In this document: in pieces, positions 1 to 14,190 of the stretch
How positions within the stretch are numbered: the first letter of the stretch is position 1
Layout: each line of letters opens with the position of its first letter
Assembly (NCBI RefSeq): GCF_050320075.1
Contig: NZ_CP190018.1
Length of the DNA stretch: 64,000 nt
From: Escherichia coli
GTDB lineage: Bacteria > Pseudomonadota > Gammaproteobacteria > Enterobacterales > Enterobacteriaceae
Strand: one strand, 5' to 3'
Notes under the pieces: generated by a model
What the model was told of the DNA's origin: nothing
Databases searched by the model: none
What the model saw: only the letters and a program-made list of their open reading frames with translations
Position numbers and translations under genes: made by a program

Positions 1-504
1 ACGTGGGTAATATCCTACACCACCTGCGCGCATAGATAACGCGGCTTTGCGAATATTGCTTAACGCGATACCTTCAATATGGAAATCCATCGCCTGCCCT
101 TTCGTGTGATAGCTTTTCTTCGCTACTCCACGGCTGCGGGCGCGTAGTTCATTGTTGGTATCAATGGAGCGATAACCGGAAATGAGTTGCACCGGTTTGC
201 GGGTGCCTAACAACCCTTGCAGGCGATACAACTGATCGAATAATCCTGGGTCGATGGACTTTATTTTGTTCGCGCGATAATCGCGGAAAAAATGGTTAAG
301 TTTTGCCAATTCTTCCTGAATATAGCCTCTGCCATCGAAAAACTCCGCTTTGATTGACTCTCCGGTATGAAGATTATTGAGTGTCAAAATACGCGGGCGT
401 GGGGTAGAGAGTGTTGCAAACGCAGGGGTCGGCAGGATGGCGGCACCGAGTGCAACGCCACCAAGCGCCAGCAGTTTGCGGCGATTAGCGTCGAATTTGT
501 CCAT
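1..504 (-). CDS. mepK: Peptidoglycan L,D-endopeptidase MepK (YcbK), partial; C-terminus runs off the window start
   Basis: Minus-strand ATG at 502-504; translation MDKFDANRRKLLALGG... has a twin-arginine signal and matches YcbK/MepK; frame stays open to position 1. Confidence 0.85.
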   Translation of the reverse strand, partial: MDKFDANRRKLLALGGVALGAAILPTPAFATLSTPRPRILTLNNLHTGESIKAEFFDGRGYIQEELAKLNHFFRDYRANKIKSIDPGLFDQLYRLQGLLGTRKPVQLISGYRSIDTNNELRARSRGVAKKSYHTKGQAMDFHIEGIALSNIRKAALSMRAGGVGYYPR

Positions 505-684
505 GATAATCAAGTCTACAGGTCAATGTTATCGTTTATATGCACTTCTGGCGCACAAGAGGCACCTTAACCGTCAGTAAAGCTGACGTCAAGATGACTC
601 AACCCCAGCAGTGACGGGGGCTGCAGAGAATCGCGCCCGATCATGCTAATTATTACGACAACTGATTTCCCCGAACTGCTTCAT

Positions 685-2532
685 TTACCTGATTAATTGT
701 TCCGCTTTCGATACGATTTGCGAGCTGGATCGCGCAGGCAGATCATAATTGTAAATATCTGTACGATACTGGGTACGACCATCTGCACCAACAAAGGCCG
801 TCAGGTAGTAGAGATTCACCGGAATCGACTGCCGAATATTGACGTAACGCGTATCGCCCTGCTTCAGCGCATCAGAAATACGTTTGTCATTCCATCCTGC
901 ATCCTGCAACAGCATATTCGCCAGATCGGAAGCTTTATTCACTCGTACACAGCCTGAGCTCAATGCGCGTGTATCACGCTTGAACAGATTGTGGTTCGGC
1001 GTGTCATGCAAATAAATGGCCTCTGAACTCGGCATATTGAATTTATAGCGCCCCAGCGAGTTCCGTGGGCCTGGAGCCTGCTGGAAGCGAAACGGTAAAT
1101 TCGAGGCCGTGATTGTAGACCAGTCAACCTGCCATGGGTCAATCGCTTCTCTGCTGTTCCAGCCGCGCATCACCGTATAGCCATGGCTTTCGAGGTATCC
1201 CGGATCGTTGCGCACTTTCGGCAGAATATCTTTGCGTGCCAGAGTTGGTGGTACGTTCCACGGCGGGTTTACCACTACGTTGTTAAGTGCACTGCTCATC
1301 ATCGGCGTTTTGCGATCGGGGCGACCGACAATGACTCGCGAATCCAGTACCTGATTGCCGTTCTGATAGTAGACCAGCGAATAGGCTGGAATGTTAACCA
1401 TGATCCCGGTAGAAAGCTCTGTTGGTAGCAAGCGCAATCGCTGGATGTTGAGTGCCAACACGCCAGCACGCTGGGCGGGCGTTACGTTTAACCAGTCACG
1501 CGTTGCCGGGCCAATAGCGCCATCTGCTCCCAATCCTTGCCATGCCTGAAAACGTTTAACGGCCTCCACCAGTTCATTATCGTAGGCGGCACGAACGGCA
1601 GGCGCAGGTTTACTACGAGACGTCGTTTGCTTGTCCATCGGCTTAGTTTCTGCTGTTTCAACAGTAACAGCGGATGGGCTGACTACTGCGTCAGTTGGCG
1701 TGTCATCGCCAGGGAGAGTAATTTTTGGCCCCCCGTCCAACATGCCTGTGCGTTGCAATATTTCGCGCAACGCCGGTACGTCGTTACTCCACTGCCCTGG
1801 GCGCAACGTTGCTTTACCGGTCAGTTGAGGCCACGGTTTGGTGTCACTGAGTAAGGCCAGTAACGATTCATGCATCGCCGCATATTGCGGATGCTGCGGT
1901 GCCAGTCCTGCAACAAACGTCGGCAATTGACCTTTATCCAGCGCCAGCTGCCATTGGTTAATCACCGAAAGCGGCGGCGTTGCAAGCGCATAAGGTTTAC
2001 TGCTATATAGCCAGCGAGTGCCTTTGACCGGAATATTTGCAATGAAATGGAGATAGCCCATCATCGCATCAGAGAGCACGACGTCGCGTGCCATTCCGTT
2101 AACACCAGGATCGGTCAGTAACTCTACCCATTTATTAAACTGCGGCTGGAAACCGGCAATCGCCACCTCGGCCAGCTGTTGCTGGAAGGCTTTAACAGCA
2201 TCACGGTTTTCCCACATGGGTTGCATATCGCGTGCGGCATACAACAGTTGAAGCTGGTTAAGATAAACCGGCTTGTAACCTGCGGGTAATTGAGATTCGA
2301 TTTGCGTGCGGGCTTTTTCTGCCGCACCTTCAGGCAATGGCTGGATCCCCGCCATTATTGCCGTGGCTTGCGCCTGCGGCAGTGCCTCGCCCTGTTCACT
2401 GACAGCCACCGGGCTGTCGCCAGGGATTACTTCAGGCTCATCGGCCTGCGCATTGAACAGTGGAGCGAATGTTACGGCCAGGCACAAACTGATTGCCGAC
2501 AGCCGACGACCACACATCATATTAAGCAACAT
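685..2532 (-). CDS. ldtD: L,D-transpeptidase LdtD (YcbB)
   Basis: 615-aa ORF recognised as YcbB/LdtD with N-terminal signal peptide; stop TAA at 685-687. Confidence 0.92.
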
Positions 2533-2756
2533 CCCTTGCCCCCTGTTTTTATCATACTCTGAATAGCCAGGCTGTTATTTTACGACTTGCCTGTACAACG
2601 CCAATACTCACGAAAGTATGACGAGCAAGCCTGTTACTCATCAGGCTTATCTTCAGTATATAAACGCCGATACGTTTTTACATAACCTAATGTAAAGAAG
2701 TTTAAAGAAAAGCGCGCCGTAATGTGCCACTTTTTTAGTGCAGAAACGGAGTTTTC

Positions 2757-2788
2757 GGAAAAAGAAAAGGCGGCATTGCTGCCGCCTT
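2757..2788 (-). terminator. Rho-independent terminator downstream of mukB
   Basis: Minus-strand hairpin AAGGCGGCAGCAATGCCGCCTT followed by TTCTTTTTC, immediately 3' of the mukB stop. Confidence 0.6.
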
Positions 2789-2792
2789 AATT

Positions 2793-5700
2793 TTAACTCG
2801 CCTGAGAAGGCGCTTCGTCACTTCCTGGAAGCGTTTCAGGGAGTTGCGGCGCAAAGCCACGCAGGCCGACGACGTGAACGTGTTCGGTATTCTGGAAGAC
2901 TTTACGCACCAGTTTATAGGTGGTGCCTTTCTCCGGGCTGATATTTTCCGGCGCTGCGATGATGAGCTGCATTTGCAAACGTTCACACAATTCAAACAGC
3001 GTGGCGATAGAACGAGCATCCAGTCGCGCTGCTTCATCGAGGAACAGCAGGCGGCAAGGAGAGATATCTTTACCGCGCAGGCGGCGAGATTCATCTTCCC
3101 AGCTTTGTACCACCATCACCAGAATCGACATACCGGTACCAATCGCCTCACCGGTCGACAATGCACCAGACTCTGCGCGCAACCAGCCATCAGAACCACG
3201 GTTAACCTCAACTTCCATTTCCAGATAGTTGCGGTAATCCAGCAGTTCTTCGCCAATGGTCTGCGGCGTGCGCTGCCCCATATCAATCTGCGGATTAAGA
3301 CGCTGATACAATTTCGCCAGCGCTTCCGAGAAGGTCAGACGGTTGCTGTTAAACAGATCCTGATGCTGCTCATGCTGTTCAGAGAGCACATCCAGCAGCA
3401 TGGCGTGCGTTTCACGCACGTTCACGTTGAGGCGCACGCTGTTCACCTGACCAAACGATACGTTCTGCAACCCCTGGTTGAGCATACGGATACGGTTCTG
3501 CTCGCGCTGAATGGTTTTTCGAATAATGTTCGCCACGCTGCGGGAACTGATCGCCAGTTTCTGTTCACGGGAGGTTAACTCTTCGGTCAGACGGCTAAGT
3601 TCGATCTCCATCTGTTCGATAGCTTCCACCGGATCATCGGTACGAATAATATCCTGACGAATACGTTCACGCAGATGCTGATAAACCGCCACGAAGAACT
3701 GAATTTTACGTTCCGGACGTTTTGGATCTTCCGACATGCGCAGCACATCGCGCAGATGTTCGTTATCTGCCACTGCCAGACGCAGCGCACCTAACGCCTT
3801 ATCCGACATGGAACGCAAATCATCAGCGGAGAGATAAGCCAGCTCACGACGGTGTAAGCGGCGCTCAACGCCGTTATCTTTCACCATGCGCATGACTGCA
3901 CACCAGCCCGCTTTCGCGGTCACTACCTGCTCGCGCATCTCAAAGTAATCCCGCTCCAGCTTGCGCAGTTTGCGGGTCAGGTTGTCCATCTCTGCTTCGC
4001 AGAAGGTAAGCGCTTTTTCCAGTTGATTGCGGCGTGAACGGTTATTGCTCAGTTGCGCGTGCAACTCGTCACGGCGAATACGCGCCCGCTCTTCTGCCCC
4101 GCTATCAGCTCGCACGCCGATATCCTGCAATTCACGTTGCAGATCATTGAGTAGCTCTTTTTTGGTGTCGTAAGAACTTTTCAGCGAAGCCAGCACCTGG
4201 TTGTACTGACTCAACTGCGCTGCGTGTCCGCGCAACGCTTCACGCGCGCGGGTACGCTCCGCTTCCGCCTGTTCCAGACGTTCACGCAGTTTTTCGTTGA
4301 GATCGCTGTTACCGCTAAGCATTTCTGCCGAGTCAGAGTAGCTAAAGTGCGCACGACGCTGCACCACTTCCGTCAGGGCAAACGCCTGCTGACGGGCATC
4401 GCGCTGCATCTGCTGAGAGTACGCGTAATCTTCTTTTAACTGTTCGAACTGTTCCGGGTCACTCTGCAATACCGAAACGATCGGTTCCAGTTTCGCCAGT
4501 TGATTACCGAACTGCTGAACAAAACGCGCGGCTTCCTGGGCTTCATCCAGACGTTCGCGGATTTCATCGACGCGATCCGCCAGGCTGTCATCAGCCAACA
4601 AGTTGAGACGCGGCAGAATGCGGTTCAGCGCCGTAACACCCTCTTTCGCCTGCTCAAACTGAATACGCTGCTGCTGGTTATCATTTTCATGATTACTCAA
4701 CGCCCGCTCCAGTTCGACGCGACGGCTGTTCAGTTGACGGATTTCTGCTTCCGGGTCAGACTCAAACGCCACCGCCAGATGACTACCTATAAAGCGGCTG
4801 AATGCCTGATGCAGACGCTGGGTTTTCTGTACATCAAAGGAGAGCGTGGCGAAGCGTTCGGAAAGCACTTCACGCTCGGCATGGAGGCTTTCAATACGGC
4901 TTTCACGCGCAGCACGACCAAACAGCGGCACTTCCGGGAAACGTGAATAACGCCACTGACGATCGGCGATTTTCACCACTACAGCTTTTTCCAGCTCATC
5001 AACGCTGAACACGCTGTCATCGAATGACTGCGGATCCCCTTCGATCAGATAGAGATCTTCCGGGCAATCGGTCAAGCCTTCCAGGTGCTCGGTTACCTGT
5101 GACAGATCTGGCACCACGATGGCGTGGCGTGACGGGCCATACAGCGCTGAGAAGTACGGCGCATCTTCCAGGCTAACGTCATCATAAATTTCTGACAGCA
5201 GCACACCACCAAAACGCTCCGCCAGCGCGTTCAGACGCTGATCTTCAGAGCCGCCTGGCTGGCTTAAACGTTCGATCTCTTCATCGACGGCGTTTTTGCG
5301 TGCGCCAACTTCGTCACGTTCAACAATCGCTTCGCGCTCACGCTCAAGCAACTGTTGCAGATATTCGGTGACGTCCTGGCTGGAGGTGAACTCTTCGCCG
5401 CACTGTTCGCTCAACTGGTTGAGACTGTTTTGCGCTGCCAGCCAAACCGGCGCACGCTGCATCAAACTCTGAATGCGAGACTGCAGCTGTTCCTGTTCCT
5501 GGCGCAGTGCCATGCGCTCTTCGCGGGCGTTAGACACGCTATCGGAAAGAGAGGCAATGCGTGCTTCCAGCTCCTGATGCAGAGCTTCCAGTTCATCAAT
5601 ATCAAAATTCTTGCCCTGACGTTTGCAGAAATCTGCCAGCAGGCGTTCGGCTTCTTGCTGCTCGCGCAGACGCTGTTCCAGTTCGCTTAAGCGCATCCGC

Positions 5701-7957: not shown

Positions 7958-9260
7958 GCGCCTGTACCTTGGCTCCGTAATCATTAATCGGCTGCCATTT
8001 CGCTGGCAGTCCGGTGAAATCTGCTTGCGCTACGCCAAGACGTACCGCCTGATCAATAACAATGCGCGCAACGTCAAAGTGACGTGCACGCGGATACTGT
8101 GACAGATATTCGCGTACCACCAGACCAAGATCCAGCGGCACTTGTCTGGTTTTGTACACGGCGAGTTGTTCTTCGATGATCGCCGCCAGCTGTTCGCGGA
8201 TCTCGTTAAACTCTTCGTACTCCAGATCCTCAGGAAGTTCTCCTGTCACTTCTTCATCGCGCAGAGCCATCTCTTCGTCACGCATATCCAACAGACGATC
8301 GGCATTGGCATAAGTTAGCGCCCACGGCTCATCAAAATAGGTTTGTACCGACTGACGTAACCGCTGAGCAAAGACGCGGTTTTTATCCATATCGATTGCG
8401 GTACGGATAAATTTGTGTACGTGGCGGTCGTAGCCAATCCACAAGTCTATGGATTGCTGGCCCCAGCTGATAATACGGTCGAGTTTGCTCTGCAGATCGA
8501 ATACCAGACGATCGACAAAATGCAGATCGTCATGGGTCATCGTCGCATCCTGAATGCGCAACAGATTAGCCTGCAATTTGTCGCCTGCCGCTTCCAGCGT
8601 ATCCTGCAATTCACGCAGCGTTCCGGAAGTTTCCGAAAGCAACAATTCACAGCTGGAGATCGCCGCCCGCCAGTCTTTGTTCAGCAACTGGGCGATATCG
8701 TCCTTCACCTGCTGCTGCTGTTCGTCCATCAGACGTTGCGTCAGGTCGATACTGTCAAAAATTTCTGCTACCGAATATTTCAGCGGCGCATAGACATTAC
8801 GGTGCCAGTGAAATTCATCACCGCCCTCTTCGGCGGCATCTGCTGCGCGTTTGAGCTCACCCGCCACAATCGACAACTGCATAGAAAGGCGCAGCGTAGA
8901 AAACTCGCGCTGACGGATGTAATAGTCAGTAATGCCGATGCCGAGCGGCGTCAGACGGTAAATTGCGTTCCCTTCCGCCTGCTCGCTGGTAAAGCGGTTC
9001 AGCAGACGTTGACGCACCATGTCGTTGATCGCGTTGTTGGCGCGCACGCCGATGGTTTCGCTGGTTTGCTCAAACGCATCACTCACATGGCGGAATGCAT
9101 CCACCAGCTCGCCTTCACTCATCTCACCATCCAGACGCTCGCCGTTCAGCGTGGCAACCGCCAGCAGAAAAGAGAGTCGGTCTACCGGCAGCGAGATGGA
9201 GAAGTCATTTTTTCTGGCCCAGGCAACCAGTTCGGGGACTGTCTGGGAAAATTCACTCAT
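7938..9260 (-). CDS. mukF: Chromosome partition protein MukF (kleisin)
   Basis: 440-aa ORF recognised as MukF; overlaps the mukE start. Confidence 0.95.
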
Positions 9261-10042
9261 ACTTTATCCTTGCTCTGCGGTTTGCGCGCGGTGACATGAA
9301 TATAACGCCCCAGGGTAATATACGGTTCCTGACGGCAATAACGCGTTTCTAATTCAAGTAATGCTTCATAGCAGTCGCGCTGCTGGTGCTTCTCGCGCAG
9401 ATAATCATGAAACACGCGAACGCCTGTCTTACCCATAATTTGCCAACCAGCTTCTTCCAGCCACAGATAAACCTGCGCCGGGTCGCGTGGATAATCTGGC
9501 GAAAGCGTCCGTTTTTTCTTTTTCGGCATTCCCGCCTGCACGTAATCAAAATTCCCGGCGACCATGTTATGCATCAGCAAGCCGTGCGCATTGTAGAACA
9601 TTAACGACAACACACCGCCTGGACGCAACACTGACCACAGGGTCTGTAATACGCTGCGGGGATCGGCCACCCACTCGAGCACCGCATGGAACAATATCAG
9701 ATCAACGGGCGTTTCCAAATGCGAAGCAACATCCTGAGCGGCGCAATGTATAAATTGCATGTTGTCGCTCACACCTTTTGCTTCTGCCGCCTGTTTTGCG
9801 CGGTCGATCATCTGCGCAGAAAGATCGCATAAAATGACCTGATGCCCACGCTCGGCCATTTTGATTGCGGTCTGCCCTTCTCCACCGCCAGCATCCAGCA
9901 CACGCAGTTTTTGCGGGCCCATTTCCGCCAGCACGCGATCGAGATCCTGCCACAGAATAGCCTGTCGAAGCTGCCCTTTGGTGGTGCCGTAAATGTTACG
10001 GGAAAACTTTTCCGCAATATCATCAAAATTGCGATCCTGCAT
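9257..10042 (-). CDS. cmoM: tRNA cmo5U methyltransferase CmoM (SmtA), SAM-dependent
   Basis: Track ORF begins at a GTG at 10054; conserved start MQDRNFDD at ATG 10040-10042; DAGGGEG SAM motif; 4-bp overlap with mukF, consistent with a smtA-mukFEB operon. Confidence 0.9.
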
Positions 10043-10177
10043 TGCTTTCTCCACCGGTTGGCTAAGACGTTTTCTGATAAAGACGCTATTTTGTCACAGC
10101 CACGGCGAGAATGAACCTGTCTGGTGTAATATCGCTGGCGATCCCTTGCTATATGGTTAAAAAAGGAACCAGAAAGG

Positions 10178-10957
10178 ATGCTTTTTACACTGAAAAAAGT
10201 GATTGGCAATATGTTGCTGCCACTTCCGCTGATGTTGTTGATTATTGGCGCTGGCCTGGCGCTGCTGTGGTTTAGCCGTTTTCAAAAAACCGGGAAGATT
10301 TTTATTAGCATTGGGTGGCTGGCGCTCTTGTTATTGAGTTTGCAACCGGTAGCCGACCGCCTGCTGCGTCCCATCGAAAGCACCTATCCGACATGGAATA
10401 ATTCGCAAAAAGTGGACTATATCGTGGTGCTCGGAGGTGGTTATACCTGGAACCCGCAGTGGGCACCAAGCTCGAATTTAATCAATAACAGTCTGCCTCG
10501 CCTGAATGAAGGTATTCGCTTATGGCGCGAAAATCCGGGATCAAAACTGATCTTCACGGGAGGCGTAGCAAAAACCAATACGGTGAGTACAGCGGAAGTA
10601 GGTGCCAGAGTTGCGCAATCGCTGGGCGTGCCGCGCGAGCAAATTATCACTCTGGATTTGCCAAAAGATACCGAAGAAGAAGCTGCGGCAGTGAAACAGG
10701 CGATTGGTGACGCCCCTTTCCTGCTGGTGACCTCCGCATCACATCTGCCGCGGGCGATGATCTTTTTTCAGCAGGAAGGGTTAAATCCGCTACCAGCCCC
10801 AGCGAATCAGTTGGCCATCGACTCGCCGCTTAATCCGTGGGAACGGGCAATCCCTTCTCCGGTTTGGTTGATGCATAGCGATCGTGTTGGCTATGAAACG
10901 CTTGGCCGCATCTGGCAGTGGCTGAAAGGTCCGTCAGGCGAGCCACGGCAAGAGTGA
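10178..10957 (+). CDS. elyC: Envelope biogenesis factor ElyC (YcbC), DUF218
   Basis: 259-aa ORF with N-terminal transmembrane segment; RBS AGGAACCAGAAAGG before ATG 10178. Confidence 0.9.
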   Translation: MLFTLKKVIGNMLLPLPLMLLIIGAGLALLWFSRFQKTGKIFISIGWLALLLLSLQPVADRLLRPIESTYPTWNNSQKVDYIVVLGGGYTWNPQWAPSSNLINNSLPRLNEGIRLWRENPGSKLIFTGGVAKTNTVSTAEVGARVAQSLGVPREQIITLDLPKDTEEEAAAVKQAIGDAPFLLVTSASHLPRAMIFFQQEGLNPLPAPANQLAIDSPLNPWERAIPSPVWLMHSDRVGYETLGRIWQWLKGPSGEPRQE

Positions 10958-11827
10958 TTTTGATGCCAGATCGAAGTTGCGCCGACTAAATCGTCCGGTA
11001 TTAACCAGTTGCGCAACTTCATCCCATAACACATACAACCAACGCCGCCAGATGAACGACTCCGCCACTGGCGCGCGTTGCAGGTAACTCCAGAGCAAAT
11101 CTTCCGCCAGAGAATTATCCATTAGTCGGAACAGTTCGTATTCTCGCGGTGCCCAAAGCATTAGTCCCGGCCCGACCATCGCCAGTAACTGATCGCTGCG
11201 CGAATCTTTCAGCATGCTGCGTAAACAGAAGTTACCGTGAATCAGCACACAATTGTCGTTAAAGCCTTCAAATAATGCCGGAAGACATTCGCGAGTACGA
11301 AACAGGATCCGCTTATCCTGCATCGTTAGACCGGTGTTATTGAACTGATTGAGCGTGGTCCATAGCACTTCAACATGTTGCCGGTACCATGAGGGCCAGA
11401 AATTTTCCTGAGTATTGTCGACCGCGCCGACGCAACCGCGACTGTCCTGACGGTGCCAGGCCAGTAAGGCTTCAACGATTTGATCTTTGAGCTGTTCCCA
11501 GCGTTCTGGTGTTCGGGCTGGTGCCTCCACCGAAACACCACGCATCCGCTCCAGTAGCAGGACATCGGGGCCGGGGTGTTCTTCATGCGTCATCACACCA
11601 TAAATAGTCGGCATACGGACAGTTCCACTTCTTGCCAGCATGGTGGTTTTCCATGCCAGTTGTCGGGCTTTTCCGGGCGTACTAAAGCTTCTTGCCATTA
11701 ACGGCATTGGGTTTCCCTGGCTGTCATACAAAGCCCACAACGCCGTATCCGCTTTTTCATTGACGCACTCAATACGACTGAGTTTTTCGCCCAGTAAATG
11801 GCTTAATTCGGCACGCAGCTGTTCCAT
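10934..11827 (-). CDS. ycbJ: Putative phosphotransferase/kinase-like protein YcbJ
   Basis: 297-aa ORF, ATG at 11825-11827; convergent with elyC with a 24-bp 3' overlap. Confidence 0.88.
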   Translation of the reverse strand: MEQLRAELSHLLGEKLSRIECVNEKADTALWALYDSQGNPMPLMARSFSTPGKARQLAWKTTMLARSGTVRMPTIYGVMTHEEHPGPDVLLLERMRGVSVEAPARTPERWEQLKDQIVEALLAWHRQDSRGCVGAVDNTQENFWPSWYRQHVEVLWTTLNQFNNTGLTMQDKRILFRTRECLPALFEGFNDNCVLIHGNFCLRSMLKDSRSDQLLAMVGPGLMLWAPREYELFRLMDNSLAEDLLWSYLQRAPVAESFIWRRWLYVLWDEVAQLVNTGRFSRRNFDLASKSLLPWLA

Positions 11828-11980
11828 TCAGATTACCCTCATAAAAGCTACTGCTTTCATAATGAGCGCCAATATAAAAGATGTCACCTGAATGAGATCA
11901 ATTGTTGAAAAGAAAAATTGAGGAAAATCGTAACGGTACGACACTCCTCCCAAAATTGGCTGGAGTGTCGTGAAGTGAAA

Positions 11981-12906
<926 letters not shown>

Positions 12907-12957
12907 AGTTCCTCCAGATGGATCGGGTTATGAATGCATAAATCTTATCATAATCAT

Positions 12958-14190
12958 TTATGCGACGGGGTCTATTTCCCAGCCGGTGCGGCAATCAGTA
13001 AAGAGGCCTTGCGGGCAGCGTTCTAATGTCACCCGCGTTGCCTGCTGCCAGTTAGCGAAATCAGTAATCGCCTGACGTAACCCTTTTTGCAGCGTTGTCG
13101 TTGGTTTAATGCCTTCTTGTAACCACAGAGAGATAACTTCAAGGATGCCTGTCTGGCGATGCATTTTGGCATCCATTCGCCCAACTAATTGCCCACGATG
13201 TAATAACGGCAGAACAAAATAGCCATACTGGCGTTTCGGCGCTGGGGTATAGCACTCCAGCCGGTAGCTAAAATCAAAAAGCTGCTCTGCGCGTTTGCGA
13301 TCCCAGACAACAGGATCAAAAGGCGAAAGTACCGCGCTGTGCGTTGCAGTGAGCTTTCCGGCCAGCGCACGCTCGAGTAGCGGCAGCAAATCAGCATGCA
13401 GCCAAAGATTGCCCAATTTTTCAACATGCACAGCAATGATTTGCTGCTGTTCAGCCCTCGCTTCGCGCCACGCCGCCAGTGCCGGACGTTTCAGCCGATA
13501 GTAATCTGCCAGCCACTGTTCGCGGAATATTCCCAGGCTACGCGCACTGTTATCCAGCATGATGATTTCTGCTTCTGTTTGCGAAACGAGATCGCGCTCA
13601 TCATCCCAGTCAGGCATGACTCGGTGGGTTAAATCATAAACGCGCTGGAAGTTGCGCCGTTCAATCACCATCACCTTTCCGGCAGTAAATAAACCTTCCA
13701 GATGCCGTTTATGCGGCTTCCATTCCCACCAGCCGCTTGCACCTTTACGAGAATGCTCGAAATCGGCTGAACGTACCGGCCCCTTATCATGAATATGCTG
13801 AATTAACTGTGCAATTTCCGCCTCATGTTCCTGCATCCAGGCGTTTTTGTATTTCCAGCCCATTTTTTCAGGTGCCAGCATGCGGTGGCGAATAAGACGA
13901 AAGTTGCTACGCGGCATAAAGCAGGCTTCATGCGCCCAGTATTCCATTAATTCGCCACGCGCCAGAGACTCATCCAGCCACTGGGCAGGATAATTTCCCA
14001 GACGACTGAAAAGCACCAGATATGGACTACGGGCAACAATATTAATGGTATCGATTTGCAGCAAGGACATGCGGGAGATCGTTGCCGGAATATCCTCCAA
14101 CGATGCTCGACGGCGGGGTTTGTTTAACAGGCCTTGCGCGGCGAGGTGAAGATTACGCGCATCAGCAAGAGAGAGGTGCGGCAGCGACAT
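12958..14190 (-). CDS. ycaQ: Winged-helix DNA glycosylase-like protein YcaQ
   Basis: 410-aa ORF in the expected position between lpxK and ycaR. Confidence 0.9.
   Translation of the reverse strand: MSLPHLSLADARNLHLAAQGLLNKPRRRASLEDIPATISRMSLLQIDTINIVARSPYLVLFSRLGNYPAQWLDESLARGELMEYWAHEACFMPRSNFRLIRHRMLAPEKMGWKYKNAWMQEHEAEIAQLIQHIHDKGPVRSADFEHSRKGASGWWEWKPHKRHLEGLFTAGKVMVIERRNFQRVYDLTHRVMPDWDDERDLVSQTEAEIIMLDNSARSLGIFREQWLADYYRLKRPALAAWREARAEQQQIIAVHVEKLGNLWLHADLLPLLERALAGKLTATHSAVLSPFDPVVWDRKRAEQLFDFSYRLECYTPAPKRQYGYFVLPLLHRGQLVGRMDAKMHRQTGILEVISLWLQEGIKPTTTLQKGLRQAITDFANWQQATRVTLERCPQGLFTDCRTGWEIDPVA

Follow-up and report, generated by a model that had tools for sequence, protein, structure and literature searches.

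The convergent genes elyC and ycbJ of Escherichia coli share their last 24 bp, and this overlap, which is already annotated and published, is mechanistically ordinary. With a probability of about 0.85, it represents an ordinary old tail-to-tail overlap, in which the ElyC reading frame ran on into the constrained 3′ end of ycbJ and received a passenger tail from it, with no dedicated terminator or RNA element at the junction.

The pair was studied in a window of 64,000 nucleotides from E. coli (RefSeq assembly GCF_050320075.1, contig NZ_CP190018.1), whose positions are used throughout, and the features are collected in Table 1. The gene names, coordinates, and strands, as well as the figure of 24 bp, were given in the first-pass annotation of this DNA; all of them are correct as judged from the open reading frame listing and RefSeq, and the overlap is confirmed as a real and correctly described observation. 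Within its neighborhood, elyC is the sole plus-strand gene amid genes of the minus strand, with lpxK, ycaQ, ycaR, kdsB, and ycbJ on one side and cmoM-mukFE on the other. Positions 10100–11900 of the window are 100% identical to E. coli strain CFSAN061763, and the region has been found in 5425 of 5426 complete E. coli genomes, with an identity of 95–100%. Identical gene ends are given by RefSeq in CFSAN061763, K-12 MG1655, and strain 88-3493; in K-12 MG1655, the RefSeq coordinates are 971752–972645 (plus strand) for ycbJ and 972622–973401 (minus strand) for elyC, and K-12 coordinates were mapped by the relation window = 983579 − K-12 coordinate.

Both open reading frames are real. The Pfam search recognizes DUF218 in ElyC (PF02698, E 2e-28) and an APH-type phosphotransferase domain in YcbJ (PF01636, E 2e-6), while the NCBIfam equivalogs NF007794 and NF007890 cover ElyC (1–259/259) and YcbJ (1–297/297) over their full lengths. 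In addition, each gene shows third-position variation in its own flank, and orthologues are present in 80 species. A frame or annotation difference that would shorten one of the two frames, named in the first-pass annotation as the way in which the overlap might vanish, was sought and none was found: the RefSeq ends agree, and both equivalog models are matched end to end. Since a 3′ overlap is set by the positions of the stop codons alone, the choice of start codons is irrelevant to it.

Table 1. Features of the elyC/ycbJ region (positions in the window)
Feature	Position	Strand	Remarks
elyC (ycbC) CDS	10178..10957	+	259 aa, stop TGA at 10955-10957; envelope biogenesis factor, DUF218 domain
ycbJ CDS	10934..11827	-	297 aa, stop TGA at 10936-10934 (TCA on the + strand); YcbJ-family (APH-like) putative phosphotransferase
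Tail-to-tail overlap	10934..10957	both	24 bp, TCAGGCGAGCCACGGCAAGAGTGA; seven sense codons and the stop of each gene
ElyC residues 252-259 (PSGEPRQE)	10931..10954	+	lineage-specific C-terminal extension; last 7 codons inside the overlap
YcbJ residues 291-297 (SLLPWLA)	10937..10957	-	conserved C-terminus; frame apparently constraining the shared DNA
Weak terminator-like hairpin and T-run	10204..10222	-	6 pairs, 3 GC; antisense to the elyC 5′ end
Imperfect inverted repeat	arms 10911-10923 / 10941-10953	both	85% complementary, spans the junction
Perfect 10-bp inverted repeat	10973-10982 / 11011-11020		inside ycbJ; GAAGTTGCGC / GCGCAACTTC; starts 16 nt past the elyC stop; no U-tract
Rho-dependent termination region	11459 (K-12 972120 +)	-	ycbJ sense; score 5.47, p 5e-12 (Adams et al. 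2021, supplementary file 2, PMC7815308)
Term-seq "primary" 3′ end after kdsB	11935 (K-12 971644 +)	-	in the 153-bp kdsB-ycbJ spacer (Adams et al. 2021, PMC7815308)
3′ end inside cmoM	9941		Adams et al. 2021, supplement (PMC7815308)

The codons of the two genes are in register within the overlap, positions 1, 2, and 3 of elyC facing positions 3, 2, and 1 of ycbJ. The shared DNA is read as S-G-E-P-R-Q-E-stop in ElyC and, on the opposite strand, as S-L-L-P-W-L-A-stop in YcbJ, with each stop codon being the complement of a serine codon of the partner: the TGA of elyC is the TCA of YcbJ Ser291, and the TGA of ycbJ is the TCA of ElyC Ser253. A second in-frame TGA is located two codons past the elyC stop (TGA TTT TGA, 10958–10963), and read-through of the first stop would lengthen ElyC by a single residue.

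The in-register antisense frame of ycbJ contains 16 stops in 297 codons, so that seven open codons before a stop correspond to the chance expectation. In an E. coli reference genome, 75 convergent pairs have been counted among 663 overlapping adjacent CDS pairs (PMC4161906). Both the existence and the length of the elyC/ycbJ overlap are statistically unremarkable. The pair is like other prokaryotic convergent overlapping pairs in that the genes lie on opposite strands and share short 3′ ends, and one partner bears a lineage-specific C-terminal extension; compared with the common 4-bp convergent class, the overlap is longer. Convergent overlaps are thought to arise via 3′-end extension after the loss or shift of a stop codon, and by the length-based definition of the same work, elyC/ycbJ, whose overlap length is a multiple of three, is in register and belongs to phase 0 (PMC2716372). 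Phase 1 is said to predominate among convergent overlaps other than those of 4 nt (bioRxiv 10.1101/2025.11.07.687268).

Which of the two frames shapes the shared DNA was approached through column entropies computed over 78 sequences. In each flank, variation peaks at the third codon positions of the gene that alone occupies it (elyC, 1.15 bit; ycbJ, 1.21 bit). In the overlap, the middle codon positions are nearly invariant (0.09 bit), and variation is higher at the third positions of ycbJ (0.72 bit) than at those of elyC (0.50 bit). At the protein level, the last seven residues of YcbJ are less variable than the protein as a whole (0.394 bit versus a mean of 0.49), with only L/I/V and A/S/T/V exchanges and with invariant W and P, whereas the last seven residues of ElyC are more variable than the ElyC mean (0.815 versus 0.52 bit). 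The charge-changing E/K/Q/D swaps in the ElyC tail are synonymous changes of leucine codons in ycbJ, and the invariant Ser and Pro of this tail face the stop and Trp codons of ycbJ. The tail is not wholly free, as Gly254 and Gly/Arg256 of ElyC are fairly constant and ycbJ forces only part of this constancy. Taken over the alignment, the pattern suggests that YcbJ is the constrained frame and that ElyC residues 252–259 are a passenger extension. Coding constraint suffices to explain why the 24 bp are conserved.

The ElyC family agrees with a tail that was added in one lineage. An exhaustive protein search over 50%-identity cluster representatives yielded distant ElyC homologues (37–58% identity) that align only to about residue 251 and typically end some six residues earlier than E. 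coli ElyC, while in a search over 90% clusters the listed matches comprised close relatives only. Among 128 full-length family representatives, the stretch beyond the E. coli L249 column has a mode and a median of 4 residues, versus 10 in E. coli; ten or more residues are present in only 12% of them. Across the family, the tails show no sequence relationship. The two nearest 50%-cluster representatives are P0127, which is metagenomic, syntenic, and devoid of ycbJ, and P0123, which is non-syntenic and has a different gene neighborhood. The longer variants P0124 and P0208, single-sequence 50%-cluster representatives with a frameshifted look, were left aside; rare truncated or frameshifted ElyC variants do occur in the databases.

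Conservation of the arrangement was followed in a scan of one genome per species, in which the best 80 loci, all from Enterobacteriaceae, were retained and both orthologues were extended to their stops. The overlap, whose conservation in this family was proposed as a check when it was first noted, is kept in 77 of the 80 loci: it measures 24 bp in 70 and 21 bp in seven, and three have none. The 21-bp loci belong to Salmonella enterica subsp. arizonae, Yokenella, three Buttiauxella, Cedecea, and one genome labelled Enterobacter sp.; here ElyC stops one codon earlier at a TAA or TAG that lies opposite the ycbJ Leu292 codon, read as TTA or CTA. The loci without overlap are those of Citrobacter youngae (a gap of 93 bp), C. 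werkmanii (58 bp), and Citrobacter sp. wls619 (117 bp). Judged from this distribution, the overlap appears to be ancient. Selection on the arrangement itself could be an alternative cause for the exact 24 bp being kept in most of the family.

The three Citrobacter loci carry palindromic elements precisely where elyC and ycbJ meet (L009:4266-4358, L015:4266-4323, and L025:4266-4382), and these elements turn the 24-bp overlap into a REP-containing spacer of 58–117 bp, with both genes kept. ElyC gains a three-residue tail in these loci, ending in …WLKG(A/R/S)EH, and the YcbJ end …SLLPWLA is intact. The insert of L025 matches at least 40 unannotated sites in every E. coli genome, a dispersion that marks it as a repeat of the REP/BIME type. 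A second kind of separation is provided by an allele from a contig labelled E. coli/Shigella, in which CCG is replaced by TAG at ElyC codon 252 (L082:3250-3260), leaving an ElyC of 251 residues that ends in …WQWLKG. On this contig, elyC (2501–3256) abuts ycbJ (3257–4150) with 0 bp of overlap and 0 bp of gap, and the YcbJ tail is unchanged. The exact TAG allele is absent from 5425 complete E. coli genomes and is therefore rare. The genes have thus been uncoupled in nature at least twice with neither gene being lost, and each time the ElyC tail was removed and the YcbJ tail was spared. As a textbook example, the pair shows cleanly how the constraint on an antisense overlap can be asymmetric and how such an overlap has been uncoupled in nature via REP insertion.

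The overlap was probably formed as follows. The C-terminus of YcbJ, …SLLPWLA-stop, would be the selected reading frame, and the functional sequence of ElyC would end near …WQWLKG (residue 251). From there the ElyC frame would continue in register over the antisense of the last ycbJ codons up to the first codon complementary to a stop. In most species this codon is Ser TCA, with TGA as its complement, and in a few it is Leu TTA or CTA, with TAA or TAG as the complement. The outcome would be the 8-residue ElyC tail (252–259), the overlapping part of which is dictated mostly by ycbJ codons. The historical order we infer to be a stop-codon shift that extended ElyC, and the time and direction of this origin are read from the ElyC homologues alone.

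As nothing separates the genes, each mRNA is bound to enter the partner gene before it can end. The claim, made from the sequence, that the gene boundary leaves no space for a terminator holds: a terminator-site scan detected no intrinsic terminator in the overlap on either strand and none on the plus strand from the elyC stop to 12100. On the minus strand, the sole terminator-like site from the ycbJ stop to cmoM is the weak hairpin at 10222..10204, for which no Term-seq 3′ end is listed in the supplement of Adams et al. 2021 (PMC7815308). Full-length transcripts must thus end inside the partner gene and are complementary over at least 24 nt; as an intrinsic terminator is missing, they would presumably be terminated by Rho or by diffuse read-out.

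Published termination maps give some idea of the traffic toward the junction. The Rho-dependent region at 11459 lies about 370 nt into ycbJ (Adams et al. 2021, PMC7815308), which suggests that much of the transcription entering ycbJ never attains its 3′ end; the number of polymerases reaching the overlap from the ycbJ side is expected to be cut by this region. The 3′ end at 11935, located after kdsB, implies that ycbJ probably depends for most of its transcription on a promoter of its own. For elyC and the overlap, the curated Term-seq and Rho tables of Adams et al. 2021 (PMC7815308) contain no entry, and the expression of both genes may be too low for their cut-offs; the SMRT-Cappable-seq supplements mention neither gene. 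A promoter-like site is seen at 11887..11859 on the minus strand.

The first-pass annotation also supposed that the convergent transcripts run through each other, and this has proved correct and already in print, as ycbJ-elyC is an entry in Table 1 of the ExcludonFinder study of MG1655, with overlapping transcripts like the other convergent excludons described there (PMC12288877). Mutual interference was suggested there as a possible consequence, and it might be assumed that the overlap is a selected regulatory excludon, in which colliding polymerases, RNase III cutting of the sense-antisense duplex, or both make ElyC and the putative kinase mutually antagonistic; we consider this improbable. 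The pair is among 165 convergent excludons seen in at least 50% of 58 MG1655 transcriptomes (PMC12288877), it has no terminator between the genes, its adjacency and orientation are conserved across Enterobacteriaceae, and in a metagenomic lineage lacking ycbJ, elyC is packed on converging kdsB (4 bp) as well. However, the excludon listing records only overlapping RNA-seq coverage, which is unavoidable with overlapping coding sequences, and coding constraint explains the sequence conservation of the 24 bp. In three Citrobacter species, a REP spacer of 58–117 bp stands at the junction and both genes have been retained, while the Rho region inside ycbJ should limit the convergent traffic. Pair-specific data on reciprocal expression, dsRNA, or RNase III were sought in the literature for ycbJ-elyC, and none were found. 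The comparison with excludons is itself partial: typical excludons overlap in their 3′ UTRs, with a mean intergenic region of 95 nt, whereas in ycbJ-elyC it is the coding sequences that overlap, and the excludon concept implies reciprocal expression via interference and RNase III, whereas ycbJ-elyC is likened to excludons by transcript overlap alone.

A broader version of selection on the arrangement, which we likewise hold to be improbable, is that the packing of elyC against any converging gene has been selected, with kdsB-ycbJ transcription (the LPS/Kdo side) running antisense through elyC and tuning its level. It can be considered in view of a metagenomic ElyC (51% identity) that lies between cmoM-mukF and kdsB without ycbJ (L088:1443-1446; also L089 and L090). 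This locus resembles the E. coli pair in its neighborhood (cmoM-mukF, elyC, kdsB), in the lone-strand position of elyC, and in the packing of the elyC stop into the converging gene, but elyC there converges on kdsB, the two genes share just the 4 bp CTAA, and the end of this ElyC (…WLRHSPRPATNPTQD) is unrelated to the E. coli tail. Tight packing of the elyC 3′ end is therefore not tied to ycbJ. If such selection were real, outer-membrane and peptidoglycan/ECA precursor supply would be linked, and the locus would represent either a true excludon that has been conserved or a transcription unit, kdsB-ycbJ…cmoM-mukFEB, that is non-contiguous and harbors elyC in antisense orientation.

It is very unlikely that a stem-loop at the overlap or beside it serves as an overlapping bidirectional terminator of the type known from SEnd-seq, which would position head-on polymerase collisions and give both transcripts defined ends. 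For convergent pairs, a mechanism has been described in which polymerases collide head-on at bidirectional terminators; these need a stem-loop and lack the features of an intrinsic terminator (bioRxiv 10.1101/2022.10.23.513370). Like the systems of Ju et al. 2019 and of the preprint by Wang et al. 2022, elyC/ycbJ is a convergent pair without a canonical intrinsic terminator, in which transcription of both genes necessarily brings polymerases into head-on encounters; unlike them, it has no significant or conserved stem-loop, whereas bidirectional terminators lie between genes and contain a stem-loop that fixes the site of collision. Two inverted repeats could be taken for such an element, at 10911-10923/10941-10953 and at 10973-10982/11011-11020, and a 151-nt fold of the plus strand does beat its shuffles (z −2.58), but the junction hairpin stays at the level of shuffles on both strands, the minus-strand 151-nt fold gives a z of only −0.77, and in the curated Term-seq data, no 3′ end is listed for either strand at the overlap or in its vicinity (Adams et al. 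2021, PMC7815308).

Neither repeat qualifies as a conserved RNA element. Read in one and the same codon phase, the arms of the junction repeat specify I-W-Q-W-L of ElyC and L-L-P-W-L of YcbJ, and a Trp-Leu motif near the ends of both proteins yields the TGGCT/AGCCA complementarity by itself; this repeat is judged to be incidental to the W-L codons. The 58-nt junction fold (10905–10962) is no better than shuffles (z −0.55 on the plus and +0.05 on the minus strand) and varies in other species; over 78 sequences, the pairs of the junction helix are mostly invariant, and none is changed on both sides. The downstream perfect stem (10973–11020) is present in Escherichia and not conserved in other genera: its helix is 63% paired over the 78 sequences, with the core pairs unpaired in about 60 of them, and the z of −2.58 stems largely from this E. 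coli-specific stem. No covariation was detected in the 78 sequences, as pairs changed on both sides numbered 10 versus 10.7 in shuffles, and Rfam gave no match at E ≤ 1 over positions 9000–13000.

An annotation or sequencing artefact, with one of the frames being truly shorter, is excluded by the conservation data, since the stops are read straight from the sequence and recur unchanged in K-12 and in each further complete genome that was inspected, the same frame ends recur in 70 other species, and the equivalog matches are full-length.

Read as an ordinary old tail-to-tail overlap, elyC/ycbJ opens no new biological question, and its main value is a caution concerning deletion mutants of either gene. 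As 24 bp are shared, a deletion or insertion at the end of one gene touches the other. The Keio deletions reportedly leave the final 21 nt of the target gene in place. In that case, because 24 = 21 + 3, ΔycbJ would remove exactly 10955-10957, the stop of elyC, and ΔelyC would remove exactly 10934-10936, the stop of ycbJ. Each allele would then extend the partner protein, and the phenotypes of ΔycbJ would need to be checked against ElyC, and vice versa. This fits the remark in a phenotypic profiling study that ycbJ overlaps elyC in the opposite orientation and that its deletion inactivates elyC (mSystems 2025, PMC12282094). The phenotypes of ΔelyC have been complemented by elyC in trans, and the DUF218 domain of ElyC has been predicted to be periplasmic (PMC3879167).
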